This document shows, piece by piece, positions 2,301 through 42,456 of a stretch of DNA of 64,000 nucleotides. The notes below the pieces were generated by a model, which worked only from the letters and a program-made list of their open reading frames with translations, was not told where the DNA came from and ran no database searches. The translations under genes were made by a program, and so were the position numbers. Each line of letters begins with the position of its first letter. Position 1 is the first letter of the stretch. This DNA is from an uncultured Cellvibrionales bacterium (GTDB lineage: Bacteria > Pseudomonadota > Gammaproteobacteria > Pseudomonadales > GM7GCV1), in contig CAJXYP010000019.1 in the NCBI GenBank assembly GCA_913063225.1, forward strand, positions 1,178-65,177. The letters are read 5' to 3'.

Positions 2301-2594
2301 TTATGAGACTTCTATCTCCAGTTTCTTCAGTAGCCCATGACGGTCTAGTCTGTCTTTAACCAAAATTTCTTTTTCAACCTTAGTAAGTTGCTTTAGCCGG
2401 TACTCCGCTCTCGAAGCAATAGATCGGTCTCCAAGCGCGCATTGATAAACCAAGGTTAGGTCTCCTTGCGCCCTAAGGAATTTCGAGCCACGTCCGAGGC
2501 AATGTGCTTCAAAGCGTTTTTCGACGTTATTGCTTATGCCGGTATAGAGTGCGCCAGATTCAGTTCTGACCATATAGACATACCAATCAGACAT
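2301..2594 (-). CDS. GIY-YIG nuclease family protein (UPF0213-like)
   Basis: WYVYMVRTESGALYTGISNNVEKRFEAH matches the GIY-YIG motif spacing; 97 aa. Confidence 0.85.
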   Translation of the reverse strand: MSDWYVYMVRTESGALYTGISNNVEKRFEAHCLGRGSKFLRAQGDLTLVYQCALGDRSIASRAEYRLKQLTKVEKEILVKDRLDRHGLLKKLEIEVS

Positions 2595-2628
2595 GTCTAA
2601 TGGCCAGATTCTATCTCGCGCTTCGGGC

Positions 2629-2907
2629 TTATGTGCGGCTGGTTACTTCCAGAAGATGGTAACCAAACTGAGTTTTCACTGGGCCCTGAACCTGATTCAA
2701 GTCAGCGGAAAAAACCACCTCATCAAACTCACGAACCATCTGGCCTGGGCCAAACTCACCCAAGTCACCACCATTTTTGCCGGATGGGCAGCTAGAGTGC
2801 TGTTTTGCAATGTCGGCAAAATCCGCGCCTTGTTCGATTTGCATTTTTAGGTCGAGGCATTTTGCTTCGTCATTTACTAGGATGTGTCGTGCTGATGCTT
2901 TGCTCAT
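2629..2907 (-). CDS. ppiC: peptidyl-prolyl cis-trans isomerase C (parvulin)
   Basis: 92 aa; ARHILV..., CPSGKNGGDLGEFGPGQMVREFD and GYHLLEV are parvulin hallmarks. Confidence 0.9.
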   Translation of the reverse strand: MSKASARHILVNDEAKCLDLKMQIEQGADFADIAKQHSSCPSGKNGGDLGEFGPGQMVREFDEVVFSADLNQVQGPVKTQFGYHLLEVTSRT

Positions 2908-2997
2908 AAGGGTTTCTTGTAGATTTAGTTGATGTGGGATTGTAACAATTCCTAAAGACCTAATGCCACCTGCACTCTTACCGCGGGATTGGCGTCG

Positions 2998-3315
2998 TCA
3001 CCCGGGTCGTGAAACAGGCCAGATGCGATGCTTACTGAAACCGCTGATCGTCGTTCCACGCAGACGGCTGAGGCCTGTGCCTTCTATGGCATCTAGCCCA
3101 TGATAGGCAGACAGTATGCTTGCCGGTTTTTTTGCTCCTTGGTATGCATCATTAGCTGACATTTCAGGATATTGGGATATTGGGATTTCTGTCGCACAGC
3201 CGGATGCAAAAGCTAGAGTTAGCGTAAAGGCTACCCAGATTGGGAGTTTTTATTTGGTTGTGATAGGCCTCGAAAATGTCTGTTTTCTGCTTTCTATGTA
3301 AGTAAGATATTTCAT
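2998..3315 (-). pseudogene. lipoprotein-like ORF with an in-frame TAA between the ATG and the signal peptide (or a non-canonical start)
   Basis: My codon-by-codon minus-strand translation gives MKYLTYIESRKQTFSRPITTK*KLPIWVAFTLTLAFASGCATE...RPG*. The lipobox is LAFASGC. The stop is at 3250-3252. There is no ATG, GTG or TTG between that stop and the lipobox. Confidence 0.3.
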
Positions 3316-3368
3316 AGGGCAATCCTCGTACCATCGGTTACAAATTACAGCTTGGTGAGCTTACGGAT

Positions 3369-4010
3369 TTAGATTCTTGAGGTAGTTTCCGTCATCAAAA
3401 CAGAAATTTTTGTCATAACTTTTTTAACGGTGGGAGGAAACTCAATACCACCGGCTTGCAGAGCCGCGGCCTGATGTTCTGCTTCGTCCTCTCTCATTTG
3501 CTCGACGATAGCGCGGCTTTTTTTATCGGCTTCAGGTAGCCGGCCCATGTGGCTGTCTAAATGGCTGCATACCTGATCTTCAGTTGCGGCTACAAAGCCA
3601 AGTGATATACGGTCAGATACGGCTCCGGCGATAGCTCCGATCACGAACGATCCCGCATAAAACAAAGGGTTTAGGTAGCTGGTATGGCTTTGCAGCTGAT
3701 CCAAGCGCTCATCGCACCAATTCAGGTGATCAATTTCTTCTTGGGCAGCAGTTTCCATTTCTTCGCGAATTTCCGGAAGCTTTGCAGTCAGTGCTTGACC
3801 TTGATACAGGGCCTGTGCGCATACCTCGCCCGTGTGATTAACGCGCATTAGACTGGCGGAAAGCTTTCTTTCGCTATCGCTAAGATGCGGTTCATCAAGA
3901 GAATTGGCGGGTGATTGTCGCGAGCCCTTAGGGCGTGCAAATAGTGTGAGAAGTGCGTTATCAGCGCATTCTATTAGCTGATCCAGGCCGCTGTAGTTTC
4001 TGTTGCTCAT
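3369..4010 (-). CDS. coq7: demethoxyubiquinone hydroxylase (di-iron carboxylate, Coq7 family)
   Basis: [17 protein letters not shown] and the repeated E...EEIDHL / EDEAEH di-iron motifs; 213 aa. Confidence 0.9.
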
Positions 4011-4033
4011 AACGTTATTCTAACAGCTCTCGC

Positions 4034-4840
4034 CTAGTTGGCATTATCAAAAAGTGACAGACGAGCGGCTTCCAGCCAAAGTTTTTCTAGAGAGACCACA
4101 ATGGTTTCTGCGCTTCGAACCTGATCAATCGAGCATTTGTGCCTTGGGTAGTGGCTCAAAAGTAAATCAAGATATTTATCTGAAAGCTCTAAGTGTTTTG
4201 AGAGCGAGGCCAAATCAAAGAGGGGGTGCGCCACGCGGGCATATTCCCAATCGATAAAGGTGCAGTGAGTGCCATCCCACAGAATGTTTCCGGGATTTAG
4301 ATCGTGGTGACAGAAACGAATTTCGTCGCTTTGATCCCATCTGTCGGTCTGTTTAAAGAGTGCATCGAGGTCGATATCATTTGCCCTGATCCAGTCAGAA
4401 TCTTCGCCAACAATACTCAGATAATTTTCGATAGTTAAACGGTAGCTAACTTGTGCTACCGGAGGTTCTATACAGTGCAGAAGAGACAGCCTGTAGGCAA
4501 TTTCTCTGAGTAAAGGCGTAGTTAGCTTTATGCGGCTTAGAGGGTCGCCGCACCAAGGATAAATTGCCGCGAGTGAACCCTCATCAACAAATAGCGGCAT
4601 AGGAGCGAGTCCAGCATTGGCTGCAATTTGGTTGGCCTCAAGCTCTGATCTCCAGGTGCTTAGAAACTCTTCGGGTAGATCACGACCTAGCCGCGCCAGA
4701 TATTGGGCTTCGCCGCAGTACAGTACCCAGCATTCATTTACCGTGCCCCAATCTATGCGAGAGCCTATCGACAATTCCCGATCTGCAAAAAAGCCAGATT
4801 GTTGACTTTTTTCAATTAGTTTATTGATCCGTTGTTTCAT
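4034..4840 (-). CDS. APH/choline-kinase-family phosphotransferase, thiamine kinase (ThiK)-like by context
   Basis: Brenner motif HHDLNPGNILW and IDWEY. I placed the start at the internal ATG (MKQRINK), which overlaps the pnuC-family stop by 20 nt. It is the last gene of the TPP-riboswitch operon. Confidence 0.7.
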   Translation of the reverse strand: MKQRINKLIEKSQQSGFFADRELSIGSRIDWGTVNECWVLYCGEAQYLARLGRDLPEEFLSTWRSELEANQIAANAGLAPMPLFVDEGSLAAIYPWCGDPLSRIKLTTPLLREIAYRLSLLHCIEPPVAQVSYRLTIENYLSIVGEDSDWIRANDIDLDALFKQTDRWDQSDEIRFCHHDLNPGNILWDGTHCTFIDWEYARVAHPLFDLASLSKHLELSDKYLDLLLSHYPRHKCSIDQVRSAETIVVSLEKLWLEAARLSLFDNAN

Positions 4841-5414
4841 TAAATATGCGTTTCCAGCTGTACCAACCATAAATTGCGACCACAATATAGCCGAAAAACA
4901 GTGCGCTGGTTAAGTATAGCTCTCTGTCAATGTAGAGATATACGGAAACTGCGTCAATAACCACCCAATATAGCCAGTTTTCAAGGACCTTACGCGTCAC
5001 CATGTAGGTAGCTATTACGGCGGCCCAAGTCGTCAGAGAGTCAAGAAAGGGCAGAGCGGCTTGGGTATAGCGACTTAACAGAATTCCGGAACTGATCGCC
5101 AAGATGACTATCAGCGAGACGCTAATCAAATGCTGTTTAAGGCCCCAGGAGTGAATCTTCTGCGGGCTGTGATCTTTTGACCCTTTGGTCCATTGCCTCC
5201 AGCCGTATACCGCCATAAATAGGTAGTAAACGTTCAGGGCCGATTCCATCAGTAGGCTTACATCCCAGAATAGCCAAGAAAATATTGCAGTAGAAAGTAG
5301 AGCCGCGGGCCAGCACCAAATGTTCTCGCGGGCAGCAAGCACCACATAGGCAATGCCGAAAACCACAGCAATAGCTTCCCAGGGGCGTGCAAGTATCAGG
5401 TCGACGAGTAGCAT
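4821..5414 (-). CDS. pnuC: PnuC-family vitamin transporter (PnuT-type thiamine transporter by context)
   Basis: 197 aa, multi-TM, with conserved Trp-rich PnuC segments (WCWPAALLS, YGWRQW, YGWYSWKR). Confidence 0.8.
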   Translation of the reverse strand: MLLVDLILARPWEAIAVVFGIAYVVLAARENIWCWPAALLSTAIFSWLFWDVSLLMESALNVYYLFMAVYGWRQWTKGSKDHSPQKIHSWGLKQHLISVSLIVILAISSGILLSRYTQAALPFLDSLTTWAAVIATYMVTRKVLENWLYWVVIDAVSVYLYIDRELYLTSALFFGYIVVAIYGWYSWKRIFNETTDQ

Positions 5415-7909: not shown

Positions 7910-8009
7910 GTTGGTTCCTTTTATTCAATTAAGAACATTTTCAAAAGAACCGGTTGCAGTGCTATAGGGGGTAAAGGACGAGCTGGTCAGATATTCGCAG
8001 CTTGATATT

Positions 8010-8106
8010 CCTATTCCTACGCCGGTGCTAACCGGATCAGGTTCAAAGGGTTTATCAGCTCTGCTGAATTCTCAGGCTTCGATATTGTCGAAGCCACCCC
8101 TCAGGA
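8010..8106 (-). promoter_or_regulatory. TPP (THI-box) riboswitch
   Basis: The minus strand reads GGGGUGGC..CUGAGA..ACCCUUUGAACCUGAUCCGGUUAGCACCGGCGUAGGAA, matching the conserved THI-box core. Downstream, GGTTCTTTT can pair with AAAAGGAACC across the Shine-Dalgarno of the receptor gene. Confidence 0.9.
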
Positions 8107-8150
8107 TTGTCTTCCAAAACTGCGACTGACAGTGGAAGATGCGGGGGATT

Positions 8151-9477: not shown

Positions 9478-11064
9478 TTAGTGGCGGAAATGCCTCATGC
9501 CGGTAAAGATCATAGCCATTTGATGCTCATCTGCCGCGGCAATTACCTCGTCATCCCGAATAGAACCGCCGGGTTGTATTACGCAGGCCACGCCCGCGGC
9601 TGCGGCGTTATCTATGCCGTCACGAAAAGGGAAGAAGGCGTCCGAAGCCATTGCGCTGCCTTCAACTTGAAGACCAGCCTGCTCTGCTTTAATTACTGCA
9701 ATACGAGCTGAATTTACGCGGCTCATTTGGCCTGCACCAACACCAATAGTTCTCAAGTTATTGCCGTACACAATGGCATTGGACTTAACGAACTTAGCAA
9801 CTTTCCAGGTAAACAACGCATCTTTAATTTGATCTTCTGTTGGCTGTTTTGCACTGACAATTTTTAGATCAGATTCGCCGATTACACCGGTATCTCTGTT
9901 TTGTACCAGCAATCCGCCGGTAACTTTTTTGAATTCAAATCCAGTGCTCTCTACCTGCCACTCACCGCAGGCCAATACGCGAACATTTTTCTTTGCCGCG
10001 GTAATTTCTAATGCGGCTTCGCTGATACTTGGCGCGATTATTACTTCCACAAACTGCCTGTCTACTATGCTTTTTGCGGTATCGGCATCAAGTTCGCGGT
10101 TGAAGGCAATAATCCCACCAAAAGAGGATTCAGGGTCGGTAGCAAAGGCTTGCTCGTAGGCGGTGCCAATATTCTCAGCGACGGAGACCCCGCAGGGGTT
10201 GGCGTGCTTCACAATTACACAGGCTGGTTGGTCAAATTGTTTTACGCACTCCAAGGCCGCATCGGTATCAGCAATATTGTTGTAAGAAAGCTCCTTGCCT
10301 TGAAATTGCTTGGCAGTAGCAATGCAAGCTTCAGCGGGGTTGTGCTCGCGATAAAAAGCGGAGCTTTGGTGCGGGTTTTCGCCGTAGCGTAAATCTTCAC
10401 CCTTAAGGAATTGAAGGTTAAAGGTTCGAGAGAAGTTCTCGCTTCCGCCAGTAACTAATTTGCCGAAATGGTTGGCGATAGCTCCGTCGTAAGCTGCCGT
10501 ATGTTCATAGGCTCGAATTGCCAAATCAAATCGTGTCTCATAGCTAAGCTTGCCGTCGCATTCTGCGAGTTCAGCCAATACACGAGAGTAGTCAGAACTG
10601 TTTACCACAATAGTGACGTCTTTGTGGTTTTTGGCTGCAGCGCGCACCATAGTCGGGCCGCCAATATCTATATTTTCCACAGCATCTTCGAGGCTACAGT
10701 CGGGTTTTGTTACGGTAGCTTCAAAGGGATAAAGGTTAACGATTACCATATCGATAGCGTCTATGCCGTGATCTTGCATGATCTGATCGTCAATACCTCG
10801 ACGACCTAGAATTCCTCCATGAACTTTAGGATGCAGCGTTTTTACACGACCATCCATCATCTCGGGGAAGCCCGTATAATCAGAAACCTCAGTTACGGCT
10901 ATTCCAGCGCCTTTGAGAAGTCGGTAGGTGCCGCCTGTGGATAGCAGCGCTACACCGGTGTCGGTTAGCTGCTTGGCAAAATCTTCAATCCCAGTTTTAT
11001 CAGATACGCTGATTAGCGCGCGGCGAATAGGCTTTAGTTCGGTTTTGGTGTCAGAGGAGGTCAT
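9478..11064 (-). CDS. purH: bifunctional AICAR transformylase / IMP cyclohydrolase
   Basis: [23 protein letters not shown] and the C-terminal MRHFRH; 528 aa. Confidence 0.95.
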
Positions 11065-23989: not shown

Positions 23990-24073
23990 AGCTATCTCCT
24001 CAGAGGAATAGTAAATAAATTCAGGGCGACACAAATAGGCCACACCGTCGCATCAGACAGTGGTTACCAATTT

Positions 24074-24217
24074 GTTCTCTTTCATCCGGACTTTAACCGT
24101 CGGTTTCGGAATCTAACCGAATCTGCTGACCTCTTTGGCATAGAAACCAAAAGAGCGCTCGCGGACTTAAGCAAAAGCTCTTACCGCCGGTGGGGAATTA
24201 CACCCCGCCCCGAGAAC
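24074..24217 (-). promoter_or_regulatory. FMN riboswitch (RFN element)
   Basis: The minus strand reads GUUCUCGGGGCGGGGUGUAAUUCCCCACCGGCGGUAAGAGC...GUCCGCGAGCG...GGUCAGCAGAUUCGGUUAGAUUCCGAAACCGACGGUUAAAGUCCGGAUGAAAGAGAAC, the canonical RFN core with a closing P1 helix. Confidence 0.9.
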
Positions 24218-24340
24218 AGGCGGCATCTTACTGCGCAGTATGAGAAGTGTCTATCGGGAGGGGCGCAAAGATAACTAGATCGTCGGCTTGCCTATTGTAT
24301 TCAACAAAGCACCTTCAACAAGGTGTTTCAAAAAAGTTCC

Positions 24341-32650: not shown

Positions 32651-32892
32651 TTAATTCTTTAATTAATTAAAACGCATTATAGGAGCAAGTTTTCGCACAG
32701 GGTAGATACAATACTGTAACCATGGGCTCAGAATCCCCGCCTTTCTATCGACATATTGGACCAGTGTCTTTTTAGATGGAACGCCATATTGTCGACAGCC
32801 TTTGTCAGCTGATGGCTCAAACGTTAGAAAGCGTGGTCCATAAACACGAACATTGATCTTTTTAGCTAACGTTGAGTCACTAGAGTAATCCT

Positions 32893-34050
32893 ATGCCAAA
32901 TATTCGATACAACAAACGATGTAGCCATCTAACGACATGCTTAGGCGGTGTGTTACTCCTGTCTCTCCATTGGCTAGCATTTGCCGAAGATGAAGTGACA
33001 GCGCAAAATTGCTCTCAAAACAATCAATTTACCTTTAGCTGGCAGTTTACCGATAACTGTAGGCTTGAGCCCCGAGGCGGCACTAGCACGGGTATCGAGG
33101 TATCGCTAGCCCCCTCCCCACGAGCTGATTGGTTAGCCATACAGGAAGAGGGCATTAGCGATTTTGAAAAAGATAGACGCGCGATATTAGCCATGGCTGG
33201 CCCCTATCGTGTTAGTTTCGATTTTATAGAAACTGTGGGATATACCGCGGGTTATTTGCCAAGCCGACCCTACCAGTCGTGGGGCACTGAATATGTCTAT
33301 GTTGCGGATGACAGCAATGAGTACATTAGTTTGCAGCATATTATGGTGATGTATATCCGTCAGGAAGACGGTTCCGCATCGTCACCCATTATCATGAAGC
33401 ATTGGCGCCAAGACTGGGAGTATCAAAAGCGTACACAGTTTGTTTACGCAGGGTACGACCGTTGGAATAAGCAAAAACAACACCGCGAAACGATCGAAGG
33501 AACATGGTCACAGGCGGTCTTTCAGGTAGATGACTCACCCCGTTACGAGTCTTTCGGTAAGTGGCAGCATGCCGCCAATGTATCTACCTGGATTAGCGTA
33601 AAAACGTCGCGGCCCTTACCTAGGCGCGAAAGCAGTGTACGCGATGACTATCAGATTCTTGAAGGCACCAATCGGCATAGCATATTAGCCAATGGCTGGG
33701 TGCAAGAAGAAGAAAACATGAAGCTTGTATTGGATGACCCTAATGGCCCCGTTTACCTAGCTAAAGAGCTAGGTATCGCCCGTTATGAACGTATTGTTGA
33801 CCATGATTTCTCTGGCGGTGATGAGTATTGGAATAAATCTAAGCACTATTGGGCAGATGTTCGCGATGTTTGGAAAACACTGATTGACGAACAAGACGCG
33901 CTGACCATTCATAAGAAAACCGGTCAGCAATATATGTTTATGCCATTTTTTAATCAGGCCCAAGCCATTGTAGACGGTGAGCCTTATGATTCAGAACTAG
34001 GAAAGATCAAAATTAGAGAGATGCTGACGCCGTTTATTGAATTAGAGTAA
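32893..34050 (+). CDS. hypothetical secreted protein (385 aa)
   Basis: Long ORF with a hydrophobic leader (LGGVLLLSLHWLAFA) and coding-like composition. I cannot assign a family with confidence. Confidence 0.7.
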   Translation: MPNIRYNKRCSHLTTCLGGVLLLSLHWLAFAEDEVTAQNCSQNNQFTFSWQFTDNCRLEPRGGTSTGIEVSLAPSPRADWLAIQEEGISDFEKDRRAILAMAGPYRVSFDFIETVGYTAGYLPSRPYQSWGTEYVYVADDSNEYISLQHIMVMYIRQEDGSASSPIIMKHWRQDWEYQKRTQFVYAGYDRWNKQKQHRETIEGTWSQAVFQVDDSPRYESFGKWQHAANVSTWISVKTSRPLPRRESSVRDDYQILEGTNRHSILANGWVQEEENMKLVLDDPNGPVYLAKELGIARYERIVDHDFSGGDEYWNKSKHYWADVRDVWKTLIDEQDALTIHKKTGQQYMFMPFFNQAQAIVDGEPYDSELGKIKIREMLTPFIELE

Positions 34051-34467
34051 TGGTCTACCGCGGCAACCGATCATCTGACGGACGGAGAAGGTCTAAAGGT
34101 TTAAAAGGACACACACTTAATCATACTTGGATATACAAACAATCCAATGCACCTGCAGTCAAAACCATTAAACCTGCCACGGTGCTCGACGAACAGTCCA
34201 TTGCGAGTCGAATACTGGCCTGATCAAGAGTACTGAAGTAGTCTAAATGGCGGTTTAAGTCGTCACTATGATCCTGCTGCTGTATGTTCATGGGCCGCTG
34301 AAAAGGCTGCCGCCACATTTTACTAATTCCAAGCCTTACTCAGGCCGATAGGCGATATTTTCAATTGTATTGATGCTCGTCATACTGCTCTTCCAACGTT
34401 TGTTGATGACCCTATCAGATAACTCGTGGTCAGTGAATGATAGAAAGTTGATGTTGGTATCGTGTCG

Positions 34468-34558
34468 TATAACGCTTTGCTAAGCGGAAATTAATGGTTG
34501 GCTAAAATCGCGTAGCGATGGCCAAATGTTAATTTTCCGTTTAAGCAACTTGTTATAT
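34468..34558 (-). repeat. attC-like imperfect palindrome (copy A)
   Basis: The minus strand reads ATATAACAAGTTGCTTAAACGGAAAATTAACATTTGGCCATCGCTACGCGATTTTAGCCAACCATTAATTTCCGCTTAGCAAAGCGTTATA. The ends TATAAC/GTTATA pair with each other. It overlaps the stop codon of the methyltransferase gene. Confidence 0.65.
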
Positions 34559-35143
34559 ATATTTTGTAGCAATGACCTGAACAACTGAGGCCTTACCCGT
34601 ATGATATATACCCTCAACCACATTACGTTCAAGCTCTTCGATATGATTAAAATTCAATTCTTTAAACTCATCCATCAAAGATATTTTAGATTGCATAAAC
34701 TCTACCGTATTTCCACCACCAGTGCTAAACATTAACTGCTCAGGAGTATAGGCTTCGAGCAAAAATACCCCCTTTTTCTTTAGTCCGTTAATTACTTTTT
34801 TATGTAACGTTTTCCTCTGCAATGACGACAGAGGGAAAAATATAGATATTATTCCATCCCACTGATTCAGCCCTAGATTATATTCAACTAAGTCTGCATG
34901 AATAAATTTAACTTCAACACCGTTACTCTTTGCTAATTTCATCCCTTTATCTATACCTGCTAAAGATGAATCTATAGCAGTTACAGAGTACCCCTGCTTT
35001 GCTAGGAACACCGCATTTCTACCTTCACCTTCTGCTAAGCTTAAAACCTTTCCTTTTGGAATAAAGTTAAAATTATTTTTTAAAAATTTGTTAGGTTCTG
35101 TTCCATAAACATACTCGTCTGTGCTGTAACGTTTATCCCACAT
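34553..35143 (-). CDS. class I SAM-dependent methyltransferase (TehB-like)
   Basis: VLSLAEGEGRNAVFLAKQGYSVTAIDSS is SAM motif I; 196 aa. Confidence 0.85.
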   Translation of the reverse strand: MWDKRYSTDEYVYGTEPNKFLKNNFNFIPKGKVLSLAEGEGRNAVFLAKQGYSVTAIDSSLAGIDKGMKLAKSNGVEVKFIHADLVEYNLGLNQWDGIISIFFPLSSLQRKTLHKKVINGLKKKGVFLLEAYTPEQLMFSTGGGNTVEFMQSKISLMDEFKELNFNHIEELERNVVEGIYHTGKASVVQVIATKYI

Positions 35144-35183
35144 TTGATTACCCTGTTGTTGATTGAAATTAAGTTATGTAATC

Positions 35184-35214
35184 TATGTTACAACCTAAAG
35201 TCAACTTGAGGTCA
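35184..35214 (-). promoter_or_regulatory. MerR-type promoter/operator for the methyltransferase gene
   Basis: The minus strand reads TTGACC TCAAGTTGACTTTAGGTTG TAACAT. The spacer is 19 bp and contains the palindrome ACCTCAAGT-TG-ACTTTAGGT. Confidence 0.6.
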
Positions 35215-35226
35215 ATAGATGAATTT

Positions 35227-35631
35227 ATGGATATAGGTCAAGTTTCAAAGATTTGTAAATTACCAGTTTCAACATTAAGATTCTATGAAGAAAAAGGACT
35301 CATTCAGTCAATTGGCCGTAAGGGTTTAAGACGATATTTTTCTAAAAATGTGGTTGATACTCTTAACCTAATTTCATTAGGGCGCAATGTAGGGTTATCG
35401 TTAGATGAGATAGGAAAAATGCTACTTCCTCAAGGCCTTCAAATTGATAGGAACTTACTTCTATCTAAAGCAAATGAATTAGATATAAAAATTATGGAAA
35501 TGACAGCAATGAGAGATGGGCTTCGCCATGCCTCCGCTTGCAAAGCACCTTCTCATATGGAATGTCCGAAATTCCTTCGCTTGCTAAATGTTGCAGGCAA
35601 AAGATGGGGCAGGCCTAAGAAGAAGCTATAG
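35227..35631 (+). CDS. MerR-family transcriptional regulator
   Basis: MDIGQVSKICKLPVSTLRFYEEKGLI HTH. The C-terminal region has two Cys residues (CKAPSHMEC). The listed ORF starts at 35185, but the ATG at 35227 fits MerR N-termini better. Confidence 0.85.
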   Translation: MDIGQVSKICKLPVSTLRFYEEKGLIQSIGRKGLRRYFSKNVVDTLNLISLGRNVGLSLDEIGKMLLPQGLQIDRNLLLSKANELDIKIMEMTAMRDGLRHASACKAPSHMECPKFLRLLNVAGKRWGRPKKKL

Positions 35632-35952
35632 CCGATAAAATATAACACCCTACTAAGGGGCCGCTGCGAAGCTGCCGTCCCGCGGAGCCAGCGATAGCTG
35701 GCACAAAGATTGAAGCTGTCGTCCCCGATGTCGAAGGCACAATCAACACTCGGCTGCGCAAGCGAACACCGGCCGGGGACTATGACGCAACGCTTGAGAT
35801 GGACTCGTCTACCAGAGCCAACCGCTATCAGGGGTTAATGGCATTTGCGGTGAGGGGGCCACAACACGCTGCCCTTGGCTGCGTGCCAACGGACTTCACC
35901 GGAAACATATAGAAAGATCGGGACACCCATCAACTTAATCGCTAGAGATAGT

Positions 35953-36152
35953 AACGCAGGGCATTAGGCCAAAGGCTAGTAAACCATGAGGGTAGTAGTG
36001 GATGTCCTGAACTTCGCAAGAATGTAGGCCATTAGCACAAGGACTAGTAAACCGTGACCGTAATAGTGGATGTATAAAACTTCGCTGACGTTGTGGTTTA
36101 CTCTGGCACTTTACACTGACCCTAAAGACCCCAAGTATTACTTGCTTATATG
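35953..36152 (-). repeat. long attC-like element containing an internal tandem duplication
   Basis: The minus strand starts ATATAAGCAAGTAATAC (overlapping a stop codon, as in copy A) and ends CCTGCGTTAC. It has the internal inverted repeat AGTAAACC/GGTTTACT. Confidence 0.4.
35959..36085. repeat. 68-bp-period tandem repeat, about 1.9 copies
   Basis: GGGCATTAGGCCAAAGGCTAGTAAACCATGAGGGTAGTAGTGGATGTCCTGAACTTCGC versus GGCCATTAGCACAAGGACTAGTAAACCGTGACCGTAATAGTGGATGTATAAAACTTCGC. Confidence 0.8.
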
Positions 36153-36301
36153 TTGAATTTTTGTTGAATTAAATTTTCCTGATTTAGCCATAATGAGATT
36201 GATAATGGATTATCAGGTTCCTGACCAAAACGGATTTTATTGCGGATAAGGCTCAAGTCAGGATTATTTTTGTAACTATATTGTTTATCCACGTCCTTCA
36301 T
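36146..36301 (-). CDS. possible 51-aa ORF overlapping the sodX 3' end
   Basis: MKDVDKQYSYKNNPDLSLIRNKIRFGQEPDNPLSISLWLNQENLIQQKFNI. No recognisable motif. It could be non-coding. Confidence 0.25.
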   Translation of the reverse strand: MKDVDKQYSYKNNPDLSLIRNKIRFGQEPDNPLSISLWLNQENLIQQKFNI

Positions 36302-36611
36302 TAGTGCACCACCTCGTCGATCGTGACACCTGCCCAACAACCCGACCTAAGACTTGCGCAGGTTGGATACTACCCAAAGTCAAAGTGTCGGTTGAAGCGG
36401 CAAGATTATCGCCCACTAATAATAGGGTGCCACCGTTTTCTATTGTGATGATTCGTTTAATTATCTTTCCATACTGAGCATGTTCGACCACCACCACATC
36501 GCCTTGTTTAAAGACTGAATGGAGTCGTCGATATGCTATTACAAAATCACTGCAGCAGAAGCTAGGCTGCATGCTATCTCCGGCGACTTTATAACAGCCA
36601 AGCCTAATCAT
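36285..36611 (-). CDS. sodX: S26-family peptidase, NiSOD maturation protease SodX-like
   Basis: GDSMQP (catalytic Ser), GDVVVV, IKRI (Lys) and the GDN box. It lies immediately downstream of sodN. Confidence 0.75.
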   Translation of the reverse strand: MIRLGCYKVAGDSMQPSFCCSDFVIAYRRLHSVFKQGDVVVVEHAQYGKIIKRIITIENGGTLLLVGDNLAASTDTLTLGSIQPAQVLGRVVGQVSRSTRWCTNEGRG

Positions 36612-36650
36612 GTTCTGCTACACATACCAATCATGTGGGTTAGATCAAGG

Positions 36651-37151
36651 TTATTTAAGCTTTGGATAAACAATCATTTCTGCAGGAAGGTAAGGGCTTG
36701 TTGCTGTATACGTTGCAACTTTTTTAGTGCTCCAATAAGCCGCCGCGAATTCATTCACCAAGGCTAATAATTTTTCACCTTTCTCGCGCTCAAGCCCTTG
36801 CTTACACGCAGAACCAGCCAGCATGATGTCGTGTACTAGTGTATGAATATTAGGAAACTGATCAAGCTGAGGCTGTTTAAAATAATCACCCCAGATAATT
36901 CTAATTTCATGCTTAACTTTTTCTGCATGCACTTCTTTCTCAGCCACTAATCGACCTAACTTGGCCTGGTCAGCCAGTGACAGTGTTTCTGTGCTCGCTA
37001 ACTCGTTGATCAAGTCCATAAAGCGAACAGTGCTTAATGTTGCTATTTGTGCCGTAATTGGATCGTAAACTTTACAAGGAATATCACAATGAGCGGAAGC
37101 CGTGTCTATACCTACCAACTTATCGTACAAGCTAATTAGATTGTGCAACAT
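36651..37151 (-). CDS. sodN: nickel superoxide dismutase precursor
   Basis: A pro-peptide followed by the Ni-hook HCDIPCKVYDP. WGDYFKQPQLDQFPNIHTLV parallels Streptomyces SodN WSDYFKPPHFESYPELHTLV. Confidence 0.92.
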   Translation of the reverse strand: MLHNLISLYDKLVGIDTASAHCDIPCKVYDPITAQIATLSTVRFMDLINELASTETLSLADQAKLGRLVAEKEVHAEKVKHEIRIIWGDYFKQPQLDQFPNIHTLVHDIMLAGSACKQGLEREKGEKLLALVNEFAAAYWSTKKVATYTATSPYLPAEMIVYPKLK

Positions 37152-37154
37152 AAT

Positions 37155-37367
37155 TTATTTTTCCTTATTTACAGTTTTAATATTTTTTGATTTGCGTAAA
37201 TAGAACCAGATTCCGGTCCCAATAGCGTAAGCCAATGCCGCTAAAAGAAAAGAATGAACCGCAGGGCTTGCCCAGTGTCCGTGGTCATGGCCTGAATGTG
37301 CTGCTACGAAACTTGCAGGTGTTATCAGCGCTACCGCTAGAGGGAGAGATTTTTTAAATGACATCAT
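37155..37367 (-). CDS. 70-aa membrane protein with a His-rich segment (HSGHDHGHWASPAVH)
   Basis: Hydrophobic N-terminus, His cluster, a second TM segment and a basic tail. Its start overlaps the upstream stop (TAATG), and its stop is 3 nt from the sodN ATG. Confidence 0.65.
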   Translation of the reverse strand: MMSFKKSLPLAVALITPASFVAAHSGHDHGHWASPAVHSFLLAALAYAIGTGIWFYLRKSKNIKTVNKEK

Positions 37368-37810
37368 TATGCAGTGTCCTTAGAAAGATGAAGTATAGGT
37401 TGGAATTCCAACTCGAAAAAAACATTAATGACCTTTTCTTCATGCGCGCTAAAAATGCCTAAGCGTTTAACGTTCGCAGCCAATTCAGTGCCTGCACGTC
37501 GGCTTGCACCGTGAAATGCACTGGTGATGTTAGACGTACCCACATTAATTAAATAATAAGATTTTAACTGCTGATAAAGGTCTTGGTAGGTATTAATAGC
37601 CTGTGAATTATTGTGCTTTCTAAAATGCACATTCGCGATATTTTGATAGCTAATAACCAACGCAACAATTGCTGCTTCAGTATCATCCCAATGAGGCAGC
37701 AACAGGCGTGCGCGCTGGCAAGCCGTTGTATAATGCCGTATCGCGACACCGTCTTGACCTTCGTTAAAGGCTGTATTGCCTTGCAATATCTCTTTTTTCC
37801 ATTGCTCCAT
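37367..37810 (-). CDS. hypothetical 147-aa helical protein, first gene of the NiSOD operon
   Basis: GGGAG Shine-Dalgarno before the ATG at 37810. Translationally coupled to the next gene. I cannot assign a family. Confidence 0.7.
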   Translation of the reverse strand: MEQWKKEILQGNTAFNEGQDGVAIRHYTTACQRARLLLPHWDDTEAAIVALVISYQNIANVHFRKHNNSQAINTYQDLYQQLKSYYLINVGTSNITSAFHGASRRAGTELAANVKRLGIFSAHEEKVINVFFELEFQPILHLSKDTA

Positions 37811-37830
37811 GACTAACTCCCAAAAACTGC

Positions 37831-37876
37831 CTGAATGATAATGATAATGATAATGATAATGATAATCATTATCATT
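37831..37876. promoter_or_regulatory. extended Fur-box array: five tandem GATAAT hexamers plus an inverted CATTATC
   Basis: 37837-37866 is (GATAAT) x 5. 37855-37873 is GATAATGATAATCATTATC, identical to the 19-bp Fur consensus. It overlaps candidate -10 hexamers (TATCAT on the minus strand) 27-66 nt upstream of the operon ATG. Confidence 0.8.
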
Positions 37877-37984
37877 CGTGGTTGTCTATGGATAATTAGT
37901 TTTTTTGAGCAATTTTGGAGGAAAACACGTAAAAATAAATTTAGATTCAAAATAAATCCACCAAATGGCTAAATTTTAGTGAGT

Positions 37985-38440
37985 TAATCTCTCTTTTTCA
38001 TCCAATGTGAACTCAATTATTTTAATGATTTTGCTAAATTCGATTACATCTTGCTCTGAGCCATTCATTTCATAGCCAGATGATCGTGCAACACCTTTTA
38101 TAGATTTAGGGTGTGCCTTCACATACCTTTTCTGCCTGATCTTCTGATAAGACGTTTGCAGTCGCTTTATACTCAGAATTTTTTAATGTAACAAATACTG
38201 AGTTGTTCGCCAAAATGTTCTTAAATCACTGAGATTCCTCACCAAAACCGGATGCTGAATATATCTTTCTGCTGGTTTCATCCTGATCTATGACTTCTAT
38301 TCCAGCTTCTTTAAGGTCTCCAGGTTTTCTTCCCTAATGCTTCAAATGGATAAATCTGTCGCCTAGTAAAAAACCGAGATGAAATCTGTAGAGACATAGT
38401 GGAAGTCTAAATAATTTTAGTTTAAAGCCTTTGGGTAGAG
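37985..38440 (-). pseudogene. decayed cassette ORF (pieces in three frames)
   Basis: Minus-strand fragments MSLQISSRFF..., GRKPGDLKEAGIEVIDQDETSRKIYSASGFGEESQ*, FKNILANNSVFVTLKNSEYKATANVLSEDQAEKVCEGTP* and KSIKGVARSSGYEMNGSEQDVIEFSKIIKIIEFTLDEKERLTH* follow one another in shifting frames. There is no ORF of 60 aa or more in about 600 nt. Confidence 0.4.
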
Positions 38441-38490
38441 TAGGCTCACCTATTGTAGTTAGCATACTAAATTATCCAGATAATTGATTT

Positions 38491-38585
38491 TAACGCCACA
38501 ATAAACGGCAGAAAATAGTTGGCTAAAATGTGAGGCACGAACGATGGCCAACTATTTTATATCCGATTTAATTACCTTGTTATAT
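38491..38585 (-). repeat. attC-like imperfect palindrome (copy B)
   Basis: The minus strand reads ATATAACAAGGTAATTAAATCGGATATAAAATAGTTGGCCATCGTTCGTGCCTCACATTTTAGCCAACTATTTTCTGCCGTTTATTGTGGCGTTA. It has a perfect 12-bp inner stem AAAATAGTTGGC/GCCAACTATTTT and shares its ends and centre with copy A. Confidence 0.65.
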
Positions 38586-38589
38586 GCTT

Positions 38590-39438
38590 TTACTTTTCAT
38601 TGAGTGACTGGAAGTATCGACTTAATGTCTGGGCGCCAAATTTAGGTGCATTCATATCCATAACCAATACATTCAAGAAAAATTCAATAGAGCCATACCT
38701 CTTGGCGTTCAAAAACAACTTACACAAGGTTAATAAAAAAATACGTATCCAATTGGGAATAAACGTTATTTTGACGGGTTTACCAACAGCCTCAAATGCA
38801 ACCTTTGCAAGTTCAACTTGAGTGAAGACTTCAGGTCCGCCAACTAAAATCTCTTTTTCAATATTGGCGATGGCATCTATGCAAACTTTAGCCAAATCAT
38901 CTCCATGTATAGGATTTGATTGATATTCCCCTCTACCAAACAAATAAACCCGACCGTTATCTGCCATCTTGTAAAACTCAGTCATGTCTGAGAAAAAACC
39001 TGTTGGCCTCACTACACAATAGTCCAAACCTGATTCACTCAGCTCTTTAACAAATTTTTCTTTAGCCTCGAAAATTTTAAGTTGTTTAAGTTTGTCTCCA
39101 TGTAAAGCAGATACATATATAAATTTTTTAACACCACTACGCTTAGCTTCGTTAAGTAGGTTTAAGTTTGCTTGATAATCAACATCCATATAAGACAAAC
39201 CATCTTGCTGCCTTGTTATTCCAAGTGAAGAGATTACGACATCTACTCCATCACAGCAGTTAACTAGGGCGCGTGCGTTGGTCGCTTCGGCTTCAAAGAT
39301 ATCAATGTCTGGTTGGAACTCTTCCAGTTTCACCGAGCTACGAGCTAAAGCAACAAGTCGGATTTTTTTTGCGATAAGGTTTTGGACAATAAACTTACCC
39401 AAATAGCCAGTTGAACCTGCTACTAATACTCGTTTCAT
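38590..39438 (-). CDS. NAD(P)H-binding (NmrA/atypical SDR-like) protein
   Basis: MKRVLVAGSTGYLGKFIV Rossmann motif; 282 aa. Confidence 0.85.
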   Translation of the reverse strand: MKRVLVAGSTGYLGKFIVQNLIAKKIRLVALARSSVKLEEFQPDIDIFEAEATNARALVNCCDGVDVVISSLGITRQQDGLSYMDVDYQANLNLLNEAKRSGVKKFIYVSALHGDKLKQLKIFEAKEKFVKELSESGLDYCVVRPTGFFSDMTEFYKMADNGRVYLFGRGEYQSNPIHGDDLAKVCIDAIANIEKEILVGGPEVFTQVELAKVAFEAVGKPVKITFIPNWIRIFLLTLCKLFLNAKRYGSIEFFLNVLVMDMNAPKFGAQTLSRYFQSLNEK

Positions 39439-39499
39439 CGTCTATACCCACAAGTTAATATTGAGCCGGATGGCATATAACAGTGTGTTTAGCCGCTAA

Positions 39500-39859
39500 T
39501 TACTGCACACCATCATTTTTAGGCATTAAATACCAAAGGACAAAACCAGCTAAAAATAGTGCAGGAATATCGCCCAGCATATTTGCGTGTTCGGTTTCAT
39601 CAACAATAGCTTGAGCAAGCATGATTCCTGCGTGAACAAGACTAGACCAAATAGTGAACCAGATGAGACTCGCATTGGCCATTGGGTCTTTCGCAGCGCG
39701 TATCAAAAATATTCCCAATGTTATATAAATACCCATAACCATCTGTTCATATTCTGGTTGTGCCGGGGACCAGCTCCAACCAGAAGGCCAGATGAACATC
39801 ATCATTGCCGGGACACCTACAATAAAAATAGCACCAAACATATAAAGTGCAATTTTCAA
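39500..39859 (-). CDS. small integral membrane protein (about 4 TM segments)
   Basis: Hydrophobic throughout. The listed TTG start has no Shine-Dalgarno. A well-placed AGGAG plus ATG at 39885 is out of frame by one nt across an A7 run. Confidence 0.7.
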   Translation of the reverse strand: MKIALYMFGAIFIVGVPAMMMFIWPSGWSWSPAQPEYEQMVMGIYITLGIFLIRAAKDPMANASLIWFTIWSSLVHAGIMLAQAIVDETEHANMLGDIPALFLAGFVLWYLMPKNDGVQ

Positions 39860-39915
39860 ATACTTTAGTTTTTTTCTTTCTTCATGACATTCTCCTATAG
39901 CTATTTATTAACTGC

Positions 39916-39982
39916 TAACGCCTTACATAAGTTGTAGTTTTGAAGTGCAACGGAAAAACTATCCACTTCATGTATTTTTTAT
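39916..39982 (-). repeat. degenerate attC-like hairpin ending in GGCGTTAGC
   Basis: The minus strand reads ACATGAAGTGGATAGTTTT...AAAACTACAACTTATGT followed by AAGGCGTTAGC. The 5' TAAC box is not preserved. Confidence 0.35.
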
Positions 39983-40443
39983 GTACTCGTTCGGAGTGCA
40001 TAGCGATAACCATAAAAGAATAATAAGCCGGTAACAAACCAAGTAATTCCTGCTACTACACTGACTGTAGTTGTTCTTTCAGGGTAGATGAATGATAACG
40101 GCAATATTACTATTCCTCGAAGTATGCAAATTGTAGCAATAGTATTAATTCCTAATTTCAAAAAAGGAAATTTCCTGATAATGTCAGCACCAGATAAGGC
40201 ATAACATGCACATAACAAAAATAGAGATGAGATGAAGATATTGCCAATAGGTGCTAACCAAGTGCCATCAATGGCGGATTGAAAAACTTCATTTGGAGCC
40301 AACTGAAGTTCATAGCATTTAGGTCCAAAGTAAAGGCAAGATAGATGAGCTATCGCTGTAAATGTAGCGATACCAGAAGCTATGACTAATAGTAGTTTAC
40401 CTTTAAGATTCAGAACTAACTCTCCTTGAGTACATAACGCCAA
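39979..40443 (-). CDS. integral membrane protein (four TM segments, DUF3995-like guess)
   Basis: Hydrophobic 154-aa ORF. The listed TTG start lies inside the upstream attC-like element, so the true start is uncertain. Confidence 0.65.
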   Translation of the reverse strand: MALCTQGELVLNLKGKLLLVIASGIATFTAIAHLSCLYFGPKCYELQLAPNEVFQSAIDGTWLAPIGNIFISSLFLLCACYALSGADIIRKFPFLKLGINTIATICILRGIVILPLSFIYPERTTTVSVVAGITWFVTGLLFFYGYRYALRTST

Positions 40444-40503
40444 GCTTTACGGCTGGTTTGGAGCGAAGCGTAAAACCAGTCTGGTAATAGCGCATTGGTA
40501 TAT
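40435..40503 (-). repeat. short attC-like imperfect palindrome
   Basis: The minus strand reads ATATACCAATGCGCTATTACCAGACTGGTTT TACGCTTCGCTCC AAACCAGCCGTAAAGCTTGGCGTTA. The arms pair with bulged bases. It starts right after the hydrolase stop codon. Confidence 0.45.
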
Positions 40504-41001
40504 TCAATTTTCAAAGAACATCCGTATCTCAGCTACTAAAGTAGCAGGATCTTCTTCAATAACTAAGTGACCTGAATCGGGCACGGTTACGAGTTTAGAA
40601 CCCTTTATTTTACTTTGAAGTACATAGGCCTGCTCGCAAGGTATCCACTGGTCTTCCTCACCCCACAATATGAGAACAGGTGAATTTATCTCATCAAATT
40701 TTTCTTGAAATTCATCAGTGAATTTTGAGTCTGCTTGCGCAATTTGCCTGTAAAATGCATATTTACCCTGTTCGCTACTCCATGGAGCTAATATGCCATC
40801 AATTGTATCCTGCGCTAATTTTTGATGAGCAGCAGTTTTTACATATGCGTCTACAATAGCAGAGTGGATATAGTCAGGCACTCCAGCAAAAGCGCTTTCA
40901 TATTTTTCAATATGCTTGAAAAGAGGGCTGGGTGATCTGATTATTTTTTTTAACGTACCAGACTTGACTAGCCTAGAACTTGATGAAAAATGGCATAGCA
41001 A
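40504..41001 (-). pseudogene. C-terminal fragment of an alpha/beta hydrolase
   Basis: ...SPVLILWGEEDQWIP...VPDSGHLVIEEDP are the Asp and His ends of the catalytic triad. No nucleophile-elbow region is present, and the first codons overlap another gene fragment. Confidence 0.6.
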
Positions 41002-41203
41002 GAAGTGCGAGACCGATAACCACTAGCAGAATAGTGTTGGTGACAAAGTAGGGGGAAATCATCAGTGCCAGACCGGCAGCAAGAGGAGACATCGAACCCT
41101 GATTTTTGCCGTACAGAAAGTAACCGAAGCCAAAAGACCCCAGAACATAGTTGACGAATTCAATCGAAACTCGCGAGTATTTGAAACGAGGTGCAAACCA
41201 ACT
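40973..41203 (-). pseudogene. 3' fragment of a membrane transporter gene (no start codon)
   Basis: 76 open codons: SWFAPRFKYSRVSIEFVNYVLGSFGFGYFLYGKNQGSMSPLAAGLALMISPYFVTNTILLVVIGLALLAMPFFIKF*. A TAA lies immediately upstream. Confidence 0.35.
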
Positions 41204-41430
41204 TTATTTTGAATTCATCCGTCATCTATTTCTCTACTAGTGCAACCTGGATACTGGGTGTATTAACGTTTCACCAATATGCAGCTTAGTGGCAACTATA
41301 GCTAATTAATCGTTCCACCGGCCTACAGGTGTTTTTCAATTGGGACCGGTTGAACTAGCTGGACGTCCTATAGAGGTCGATAGGTCTAATAGGCTAGAAT
41401 CTAGGTATCCAAAAACTGAATCGACGAAAT

Positions 41431-42456
41431 ATGATCAATTACGAGTCACTTTTGTTCGCGTTTATTTTTGCTGTTGTGACCGCTTTTCCCGCGCAGGCCC
41501 ATCACAGCGATGTGGGTATGAATATGGAATCTATGGTCACCATTAACGGTGTGGTCACGGAGTTTAATTGGCGAAATCCTCATGTGTATCTGCTTATTGA
41601 AGTAACTGACGAGCAGGGTGAGACCGAGGAGTGGGAAGTACAGATGGGTTCGGTAAGCGTCTCCCAGCATCGTGGTTGGTCATCTGATTATGTTGCGCCC
41701 GGTGATCGCGTAACGGTTGAGGCATTTGCCCGTCGTAATGGCGATCCCTACGGAATATTGGAGACCCTTGAGCGAGACGGCGGACTCGGTCTTGGTAGAG
41801 ACCTCACGACTCCCGACGGGTTAGCTGTTTCGGAAAGCGTGGCAGGACAATGGATTGCGGATACCTCCTCCTTTCCCGATTATCCGGGTGGTTATGATGG
41901 ACTATTTATCGCCCTGCTGTCCTTAAACGATGCGGCGCGCCAGGCGGCCGCAGATTTTGATCCGCTATCCGACGAAAACCCTAACGCTTCTTGTATGGGT
42001 CGTCCAACGCCAGGTTTTTTTGTTTCTACGGGGTTGTACATGATGGAGATAGAGATCGAAGAAGACGATCTGATTGTTATCCGCAGTGAGCGTGATGCAG
42101 AAGAACGCATGGTCTATATGGATGGCCGTGCGCATCCACCAACTGACCAAATAGTGAATACCGGCCATTCTATTGGTTGGTGGGAAGATGATACCTTGGT
42201 GGTTGATACTACTAATTTCCCATTTCACAGATCGCCCTACCAGACGGGCGTGCCTTCAAGCACGCAGAAGCATGTAGTGGAGCGCTATCGTTTAAACGAT
42301 GCGGGTACTCAAATAGAAGCGGAATTTATGCTGGAAGACCCCGAATATCTCGCAGAGCCTATGACCCACGCAAGGCTGCTAACTTATTCGCCGGAAGCGG
42401 AAATGTTTCTTAGTAAGTGTGATCCGGAATCGGCCAGTAGATTTTTAACGCATTAA
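41431..42456 (+). CDS. secreted protein with a DUF6152-like N-terminal domain
   Basis: Signal peptide, then AHHSDVGMNMESMVTINGVVTEFNWRNPHVYL; 341 aa. The family call is from memory. Confidence 0.7.
   Translation: MINYESLLFAFIFAVVTAFPAQAHHSDVGMNMESMVTINGVVTEFNWRNPHVYLLIEVTDEQGETEEWEVQMGSVSVSQHRGWSSDYVAPGDRVTVEAFARRNGDPYGILETLERDGGLGLGRDLTTPDGLAVSESVAGQWIADTSSFPDYPGGYDGLFIALLSLNDAARQAAADFDPLSDENPNASCMGRPTPGFFVSTGLYMMEIEIEEDDLIVIRSERDAEERMVYMDGRAHPPTDQIVNTGHSIGWWEDDTLVVDTTNFPFHRSPYQTGVPSSTQKHVVERYRLNDAGTQIEAEFMLEDPEYLAEPMTHARLLTYSPEAEMFLSKCDPESASRFLTH

Follow-up and report, generated by a model that had tools for sequence, protein, structure and literature searches.

A 64,000-nucleotide stretch of contig CAJXYP010000019.1, from an uncultured Cellvibrionales bacterium (GenBank assembly GCA_913063225.1) and referred to here as the window, contains an AT-rich island that is very probably an integron cassette cluster without an integrase (CALIN). 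The array is partly decayed, holding two certain and two to three probable predicted attC sites, and is an element of a known kind whose one unusual feature is an iron-regulated nickel superoxide dismutase (NiSOD) operon lying within it. As had been claimed in a preliminary description of this DNA, the island stands out in composition, with a GC content of 32-42% across 34.3-41.3 kb compared with 46-50% in the flanks on either side and 44-51% over the window overall. The minus-strand bias reported there was also evident: all island open reading frames (ORFs) with a family match are on the minus strand, the sole exception being a MerR-family regulator (35185-35631, plus strand).

Two strong attC sites and their repeat family

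The island contains two imperfect palindromes of ~95 nt, attC_A and attC_B, which belong to one repeat family and are high-confidence predicted attC sites on the evidence of sequence and computed folding.

34464-34567, minus strand: attC_A, last attC of the array; R'' box ATATAAC (34558-34552), R' box GTTATAC (34473-34467)
38485-38594, minus strand: attC_B; R'' box ATATAAC (38585-38579), R' box GTTAAAA (38494-38488); directly 3' of the stop of an NmrA-like ORF

Both were found where the preliminary description had placed them and are indeed homologous, with a common start (ATATAACAAG) and a common TTGGCCATCG...ATTTTAGCCAAC. The terminal bases are AGCGTTA in attC_A and GGCGTTA in attC_B, GCGTTA being common to both. 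The gapped palindrome pattern occurred twice in the window and in none of 100 shuffles. A scan with the pattern TTGGCCATN{5,20}TTTAGCCAAN{18,26}GCGTTA through one genome per species (185,579 species) returned 12 loci, 11 of which were clear homologues, all with RYYYAAC...GCGTTA ends; the twelfth was a chance match within a coding region and was set aside. The homologues come from 10 marine gammaproteobacterial genera, among them Psychromonas, Paraglaciecola, Psychrobacter, Colwellia, Marinomonas, Ferrimonas, Pseudocolwellia, Shewanella and Agarivorans.

Two covariance models were used, one built from ten foreign copies (R1) and one that was broader (R2), with the window sites excluded from both. 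attC_A scored 98.7 bits with R1 (E = 1.7e-23) and 91 bits with R2, and the corresponding values for attC_B were 71.7 and 81.4 bits. R1 also detected ~15 same-strand copies within 8 kb of a Pseudocolwellia chromosome (locus L010) and ~14 same-strand copies in a Colwellia metagenome-assembled genome (locus L007), spaced 300-1000 bp apart in the layout of a chromosomal integron array. An Agarivorans locus (L012) has the family attC within an array oriented divergently from an integron-integrase gene (TIGR02249, 1.6e-73); this gene is frameshifted, and its C-terminal part carries on in another frame. The attC family is common to the chromosomal integron arrays of Colwellia, Pseudocolwellia and Agarivorans.

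The bottom strand of attC is the one that integron integrases recombine, and stronger folding of that strand is therefore what would be expected of an attC site. The plus strand of attC_A folded as DNA to -21.8 kcal/mol (z = -5.6), compared with -15.7 kcal/mol for the minus strand, and showed paired R and L boxes, 2-nt spacers and a bulged A and T on the 3' arm (the R''/L'' arm). The same spacer and bulge layout is present in the family consensus fold, which reached -21.5 kcal/mol on the bottom (gene-complementary) strand as against -9.5 kcal/mol on the top strand, the bottom-strand structure comprising 30 pairs, with invariant G-U pairs and bulged bases on one arm. Compensatory change between the arms, to which the preliminary description had pointed from the two window copies, was borne out among 36 foreign members of the family: 20 of the 30 pairs had changed on both sides and 90% of cells were paired, values reached in 0 of 500 shuffles, while slid controls were 30-52% paired.

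The interpretation of the repeats as attC sites is accordingly supported by their R''/R' and L''/L' architecture with bulges, by strand asymmetry, covariation and arrays elsewhere, and by the junction complementarity described below. It is extremely improbable that they are ordinary intergenic palindromes, such as terminators or repetitive extragenic palindrome-like elements, unrelated to integrons. The hairpins do follow ORFs in the manner of terminators, but no T-run comes after them, it is the mRNA-complementary strand that folds better, and the ends are of the form RYYYAAC/GTTRRRY. Terminators would, moreover, hardly explain a family that forms cassette arrays, one of them adjoining an IntI gene, or a model built from that family that recovers the attCs of class 1 integrons.

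Two further observations concern attC sites more widely. Many unrelated attC bottom strands carry the heptamer GCGAAGC (or GCGNAGC) at the tip of the hairpin, among them those of aadA1, catB3, arr-3, dfrA27, aac(3)-Ia, one site at locus L100 of a relative considered below, and the attC_A/attC_B family; GCGAAGC is known to form a very stable DNA mini-hairpin. IS110-family transposase genes were present next to attC sites inside the arrays of Pseudocolwellia (L010 519-1514 and 2745-3740) and Agarivorans (L012 5451-6557), an arrangement that we take to recall the attC-targeting IS1111 group.

Weaker sites, junctions and the probable division into cassettes

R2 returned three lower-scoring matches at 37808-37910 (24.8 bits), 40429-40512 (20.1 bits; E = 0.018 for the whole window and 0.002 for the island) and 39910-39993 (19.7 bits), all on the plus strand of the window. 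All three fall within the island, on the same strand as the strong sites, while the best match in the other 57 kb scored 14.0 bits. The five R2 matches are therefore all on one strand, and four of them start at, or no more than 5 nt from, an ORF stop. Given that the strong R1 and R2 matches are on the plus strand, the cassettes would be read on the minus strand.

R2 was calibrated on three class 1 integrons from plasmids, comprising 30 kb and 11 known attCs. Ten of the 11 were recovered, at 14.1-32.4 bits (among them arr-3 at 32.4, aadA1 at 31.5, catB3 at 22.7, dfrA27 at 20.0 and aadB at 17.8 bits), and the best match there that was not an attC scored 15.0 bits. In view of this range, the window matches of ~20 bits lie at the level of genuine attCs from unrelated families, and those at 40429-40512 and 39910-39993 are probable attC sites as judged by model score and position. 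These two sites and the junction-like elements of the island are as follows.

41261-41267, minus strand: possible first junction GTTAATA (attI remnant or secondary site), then 122 nt of unassigned DNA up to 41390, where homology to relatives resumes
40429-40512, minus strand: probable attC1, ~69 nt; degenerate R'' ATATACC, R' GTTATGT, end GGCGTTATGT; starts at the stop of the truncated hydrolase ORF
39910-39993, minus strand: probable attC2, ~70 nt; degenerate R'' ACATAAA overlapping an ORF stop, R' GTTAGCA
39473-39514, minus strand: putative short or decayed attC remnant after the DUF6632 ORF, ending in R' GTTATAT (39481-39475); no model match
35640-35646, minus strand: R'-type junction GTTATAT, preceded by CCCCTTAGTAGGGT; start of the MerR/methyltransferase cassette

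Weaker copies had been listed in the preliminary description at 40435-40503, 39916-39982 and 35953-36152. The first two correspond to attC1 and attC2, being on the same strand as the strong sites and at ORF stops. The third was rejected as an attC, since it is a plain tandem direct repeat (two 68-nt units) that forms no hairpin (z = +0.95) and is matched by neither model. Two longer candidates were likewise discarded: the segment 37805-37995 as a 178-nt attC, whose ends do not pair, and the GC-rich block 35640-35850 as one long attC, which folded no better than shuffles (z = -0.8 and +0.7). A home-made scan for R-box and L-box pairing was dropped as far too permissive (185 matches per strand). 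A MAFFT alignment of 19 diverse attCs was ragged in the L box, where left spacers of 5 or 6 nt stood ungapped.

The last six bases of an R' box in an array derive from the next cassette, so that R' should be complementary to the R'' box of the next attC. At the three variable positions, R' of one site matched R'' of the next in 17 of 22 neighbouring pairs in the L010 and L007 arrays, compared with 3 of 22 for a site's own R'' and 21 of 244 for other pairs. The same signature was observed in the island. The GTTATAT at 39475-39481 is complementary at seven of seven positions to the ATATAAC R'' box of attC_B, the next site downstream, and that at 35640-35646 matches the ATATAAC R'' box of attC_A equally well. 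R' of attC1 (GTTATGT) and R'' of attC2 (ACATAAA) are complementary at six of seven positions, all three variable positions included (40438/39984). The complementarity is not seen from 38494 or from 39919 to the next site. The heptamer GTTATAT occurs seven times in the window, counting both strands, and five of these occurrences are in the island.

The 3.9 kb between attC_A and attC_B is accordingly probably not one cassette. The interval is split by the junction at 35640-35646, and perhaps also by the element at 37808-37910, which makes the MerR/methyltransferase pair a cassette of its own of ~1.2 kb; the NiSOD operon would occupy at most a ~2.2-kb cassette upstream of it. Apart from the NiSOD operon, the candidate cassette genes are these.

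40504-41001, minus strand: 5'-truncated alpha/beta-hydrolase, C-terminal third of the fold only (Pfam Abhydrolase_1/6, profile positions 137-245)
39979-40443, minus strand: ORF for a 154-aa membrane protein, no family match
39500-39859, minus strand: ORF for a DUF6632 protein (Pfam, 1.9e-31)
38590-39438, minus strand: NAD(P)-binding NmrA-like ORF (Pfam NAD_binding_10, 1.7e-24)
37976-38465, minus strand: decayed gene with two in-frame stops, relative of the F420H2-dependent quinone reductase family (PF04075, E = 8.8e-4 with a stop-bridged translation, below the gathering score)
34553-35631: divergent-pair cassette, with a TehB-like S-adenosylmethionine methyltransferase (34553-35143, minus strand) and a MerR-family regulator (35185-35631, plus strand), both from Pfam; bounded by GTTATAT at 35640-35646 and by attC_A

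In minus-strand order, the array would thus comprise about seven cassettes, carrying the truncated hydrolase, the membrane protein, the DUF6632 protein, the NmrA-like protein, the F420H2-quinone-reductase-like pseudogene, the NiSOD operon, and the MerR regulator with its methyltransferase. A homologue of the 154-aa membrane protein is present within the Colwellia cassette array (L007:5905-6177; 29% identity, E = 9e-6). The truncated hydrolase, the pseudogene and the degenerate R'' boxes together indicate an array in decay.

The NiSOD operon and its Fur-box element

Both the four-gene NiSOD unit and the divergent MerR/methyltransferase pair, which the preliminary description had named as unusual cassette contents, were present as described according to Pfam. 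The operon and the elements on either side of it are listed below.

37808-37910, minus strand: ambiguous element, a predicted Fur operator/promoter and attC-like hairpin (R2 match, E = 0.001); GTTAGTC abuts the ATG at 37810
36285-37810, minus strand: NiSOD operon, encoding a 147-aa DUF2753/TPR-like protein, a His-rich 70-aa protein, SodN (Pfam Sod_Ni, 9.6e-47) and a SodX peptidase (Peptidase_S24/S26)
35953-36085: two tandem 68-nt direct repeats, copies 77% identical; no hairpin and no model match

An exact Escherichia coli-type Fur box (GATAATGATAATCATTATC) is present at 37855-37873, inside a (GATAAT)n palindrome (37833-37877), and the best sigma-70-like site of the island overlaps this palindrome, 45 nt upstream of the operon. 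A dozen unrelated metagenomic loci have comparable Fur boxes ~590-810 nt ahead of sodN, and the four genes of the operon co-occur in metagenomic sodN loci. These predicted sites suggest that an iron-repressed NiSOD is a conserved module. No strong attC of the family was detected in any of 80 related sodN loci, which, together with the Fur boxes at other sodN loci, indicates that the operon is a self-regulated module existing outside integrons. The 24.8-bit R2 match on the NiSOD operator may be a mere palindrome, and the operon may or may not have entered the array as a cassette.

A fuller proposal combines several of these elements. The NiSOD operon would be a ~2.2-kb cassette (37810-35640) whose hairpin at 37808-37910 doubles as Fur operator and promoter, and the locus beside DUF6607 would be an integrase-less landing pad kept by the lineage, with turnover by an integrase acting in trans. 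As a whole, this proposal is rather doubtful. A literature search on NiSOD together with integrons found no paper.

The Fur-box repeat was also a feature of the assemblies compared. A JGI metagenome assembly of the same organism is broken here, its two contigs overlapping in this repeat only (37828-37872). Between the ENA assembly and the window, a single 24-nt indel was found in 21 kb aligned, and the repeat tract is its likely place.

Downstream of the operon lies a non-coding stretch of ~650 nt (35632-36284), made up of a GC-rich block (35640-35950) and the two tandem 68-nt repeats, which were seen in same-species contigs only. This stretch gave no ORF, no Rfam match and no significant fold, and blastn of 35632-36160 against plasmids gave no match. 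Rfam, which holds no attC family, returned nothing relevant in the island at either gathering or E-value thresholds. Elsewhere in the window, two ordinary riboswitches are present on the minus strand, an FMN riboswitch (119 bits, 24070-24221) and a TPP riboswitch (75 bits, 7997-8111).

Class of the element, relatives and integrase

No integron-integrase gene was found within the 64 kb, in agreement with the preliminary description. tblastn with IntI1 (the query sequence having been checked against the plasmid record) and with the Agarivorans IntI gave nothing below E = 1 in the window, the lowest E reached by a three-tyrosine-recombinase profile over all six-frame segments of the 64 kb was 2.6, and Pfam reported no Phage_integrase among all neighbouring ORFs. 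The place where intI would be expected in a complete integron is occupied by a DUF6152 gene (41431-42456). No promoter-like site of strength was found in the 122 nt upstream of GTTAATA at 41267; for attI sites, no general model exists.

Under the published definition (PMC4889954), the island classes as a CALIN: the window contains no integrase, and two or more attCs share a strand with a gap below 4 kb, that from attC_A to attC_B (34567 to 38485) being 3,918 nt. Published CALINs average ~5 attC sites (PMC4889954). The preliminary description had allowed either a CALIN or the distal part of a larger integron. The first of these holds, and the second is not supported locally, since a conserved core gene adjoins the array at its upstream end, with homology to relatives resuming at 41390. 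With 5-7 sites at most, the island is below the >19 attCs of a sedentary chromosomal integron; the other criterion for that class, presence in all genomes of the species, refers to a frequency for which the two same-species assemblies are too few.

Several observations weigh against a cassette array. The only two sites beyond doubt are 3,918 nt apart, barely inside the 4-kb clustering rule. The three matches of 20-25 bits carry modest whole-window E-values of 0.001-0.02, and one of them coincides with the Fur-box palindrome, which would score as a hairpin anyway. For neither the junction at 35640 nor that at 39475 was an attC 5' half found. Cassettes do not typically contain an operon such as NiSOD or a non-coding stretch of 650 nt, and the 80 related sodN loci were without strong family attCs, as noted above. 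The array is also identical in the same-species contigs (two assemblies), where no within-species turnover is visible.

In one alternative, the AT-rich island was acquired by another route and received just two independent single-cassette insertions at secondary sites (SALIN-type), NiSOD and most other genes then being ordinary island genes. Just two sites exceed 80 bits, NiSOD and its Fur box make up a self-contained module that other loci carry without attCs, and integrase-driven insertion outside att sites is documented (bioRxiv 10.1101/2022.09.11.507474). This explanation is nevertheless distinctly unlikely, as it leaves aside three more same-strand matches at the level of true class 1 attCs with none elsewhere in the 64 kb, the junction complementarity at 35640 and 39475, the small single ORFs that end exactly at candidate sites, and the low GC content and single strand common to the whole block.

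Among named taxa, Porticoccaceae and Cellvibrionaceae are the closest to the host, an uncultured marine gammaproteobacterium. Comparison of ArgC placed it near Teredinibacter, Porticoccaceae, Halioxenophilus and Microbulbifer (58-62% identity), with other relatives at 77-88%. The comparison with relatives proposed in the preliminary description showed no conserved synteny, the block being absent from them. Same-species contigs are 99.9-100% identical to the window, array included. A relative with 76% nucleotide identity (L104) is collinear with the window to 24778 and again from 41390, the intervening 16.6 kb being absent, and a further relative (L108) is likewise without the block. Among the closest relatives carrying DUF6607, DNA homology is limited to 32664-34084, and the small ORF at 34121-34318 is not shared with relatives. 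The closest of these (L100, 86% protein identity) has a different attC-bearing cassette array (2360-5240), placed and oriented relative to DUF6607 as in the window and containing Phd/YoeB, HigBA-like, CcdAB and RHH/ParE toxin-antitoxin cassettes with canonical, GC-richer attCs between them. The sequences of two strains of this relative agree at 99.5% as far as ...CCTAAC, and it is precisely at this crossover point that they part (L103 2203). The absence of the block in relatives and this divergence at the AAC crossover indicate that the block is not stable core DNA and that the lineage shows integrase-type turnover beside DUF6607.

The segment without a counterpart in L104 (24779-41389) also covers the LVIVD, peptidase M19 and DUF6607 genes. 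In its place, L104 has 415 nt (9543-9958) that include a palindrome, ACTAACGCC-N8-GGGCGTTAGT, ~130 nt upstream of DUF6152. In L100 (5321-6525), the gene for a 301-aa tyrosine recombinase whose N-terminal domain is SAM_4-like runs into the start of an IS91-type zinc-binding transposase gene. This recombinase was rejected as the missing IntI of the lineage: it scored 150 bits against a cut-off of 265, is without the IntI-specific insertion and is followed by the IS91-type transposase. It is probably an IS91-family accessory integrase beside an attC.

A further possibility is that the array is half of a complete chromosomal integron divided by a rearrangement, with intI and attI elsewhere in the genome and still servicing the cassettes. 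About half of published CALINs are in replicons that also encode IntI (PMC4889954), and the attC family is of the kind used by large chromosomal arrays. Rearrangements could be driven by insertion sequences such as the IS91-family element in the relative's array or the IS110-family elements in those of Pseudocolwellia and Agarivorans. Set against this, no intI, intI fragment or insertion sequence was found within 64 kb, and the array runs up to a conserved gene at its upstream end; a split integron is on balance rather unlikely.

For a CALIN, the following course of events can be proposed. Cassettes would be read on the minus strand, each ending in an attC, whose bottom strand (plus in the window) would fold to an imperfect hairpin in which the R and L boxes pair and some bases bulge out. 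This hairpin would be the substrate cut by an integron integrase between A and C of the ...AAC box. An integrase acting in trans may have built the array, which would be either a remnant in decay or a secondary-site assembly, and such an enzyme could still mobilise it. No Pc promoter being evident, expression is likely only for those cassettes that bring a promoter of their own, the candidates being the Fur-box-controlled NiSOD operon and the MerR/methyltransferase pair.

The island resembles CALINs (PMC4889954) in its clustered same-strand attCs (two or more with a gap below 4 kb, ~4-7 sites in all), in having no nearby integrase or recognisable intI pseudogene, and in cassettes that are mostly of unknown or non-resistance function. 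It departs from typical CALINs in that a four-gene operon, complete with operator/promoter, and 650 nt of non-coding DNA occupy one inter-attC interval, and in that several sites are degenerate. With sedentary chromosomal integrons (the VCR arrays of Vibrio cholerae, L010 and L007), it shares ~95-110-nt attCs conserved over their full length, AT-rich cassettes and complementarity of R' to the next R''; indeed, the attC family is the same as in the L010 and L007 arrays. Unlike those integrons, the window has no intI and no evident attI or Pc, the cassettes are few rather than tens to hundreds, and the attCs are heterogeneous, two being of the family and the others shorter and unrelated. As in SALIN or attG secondary-site insertion (Loot et al., bioRxiv 10.1101/2022.09.11.507474), chromosomal cassettes lie away from an integrase, with a GTT-type junction (GTTAATA, 41261-41267) at the upstream end, but here there are several tandem cassettes rather than one. 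The attC architecture is also that of class 1 mobile integron cassettes (aadA1, arr-3, dfrA27), which the family model cross-detects at 14-32 bits; by contrast, IntI1, the 5'-CS and 3'-CS conserved segments and resistance genes are all missing here, and the setting is chromosomal and marine.

CALINs are common but poorly understood reservoirs of cassettes, and the island is a clear case from an uncultured lineage of marine bacteria near Porticoccaceae and Cellvibrionaceae. The findings leave the understanding of the integron mechanism unchanged. The occurrence of one ~95-110-nt attC family across at least ten marine gammaproteobacterial genera implies cassette traffic among those genera. The array also places metal and oxidative-stress functions, in the form of the iron-regulated NiSOD operon and the MerR-controlled methyltransferase, inside a cassette array. 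Should the NiSOD operon indeed be carried on a cassette, integrons could transfer entire regulated operons that allow cells to use nickel in place of iron, which would be of relevance in iron-limited oceans.

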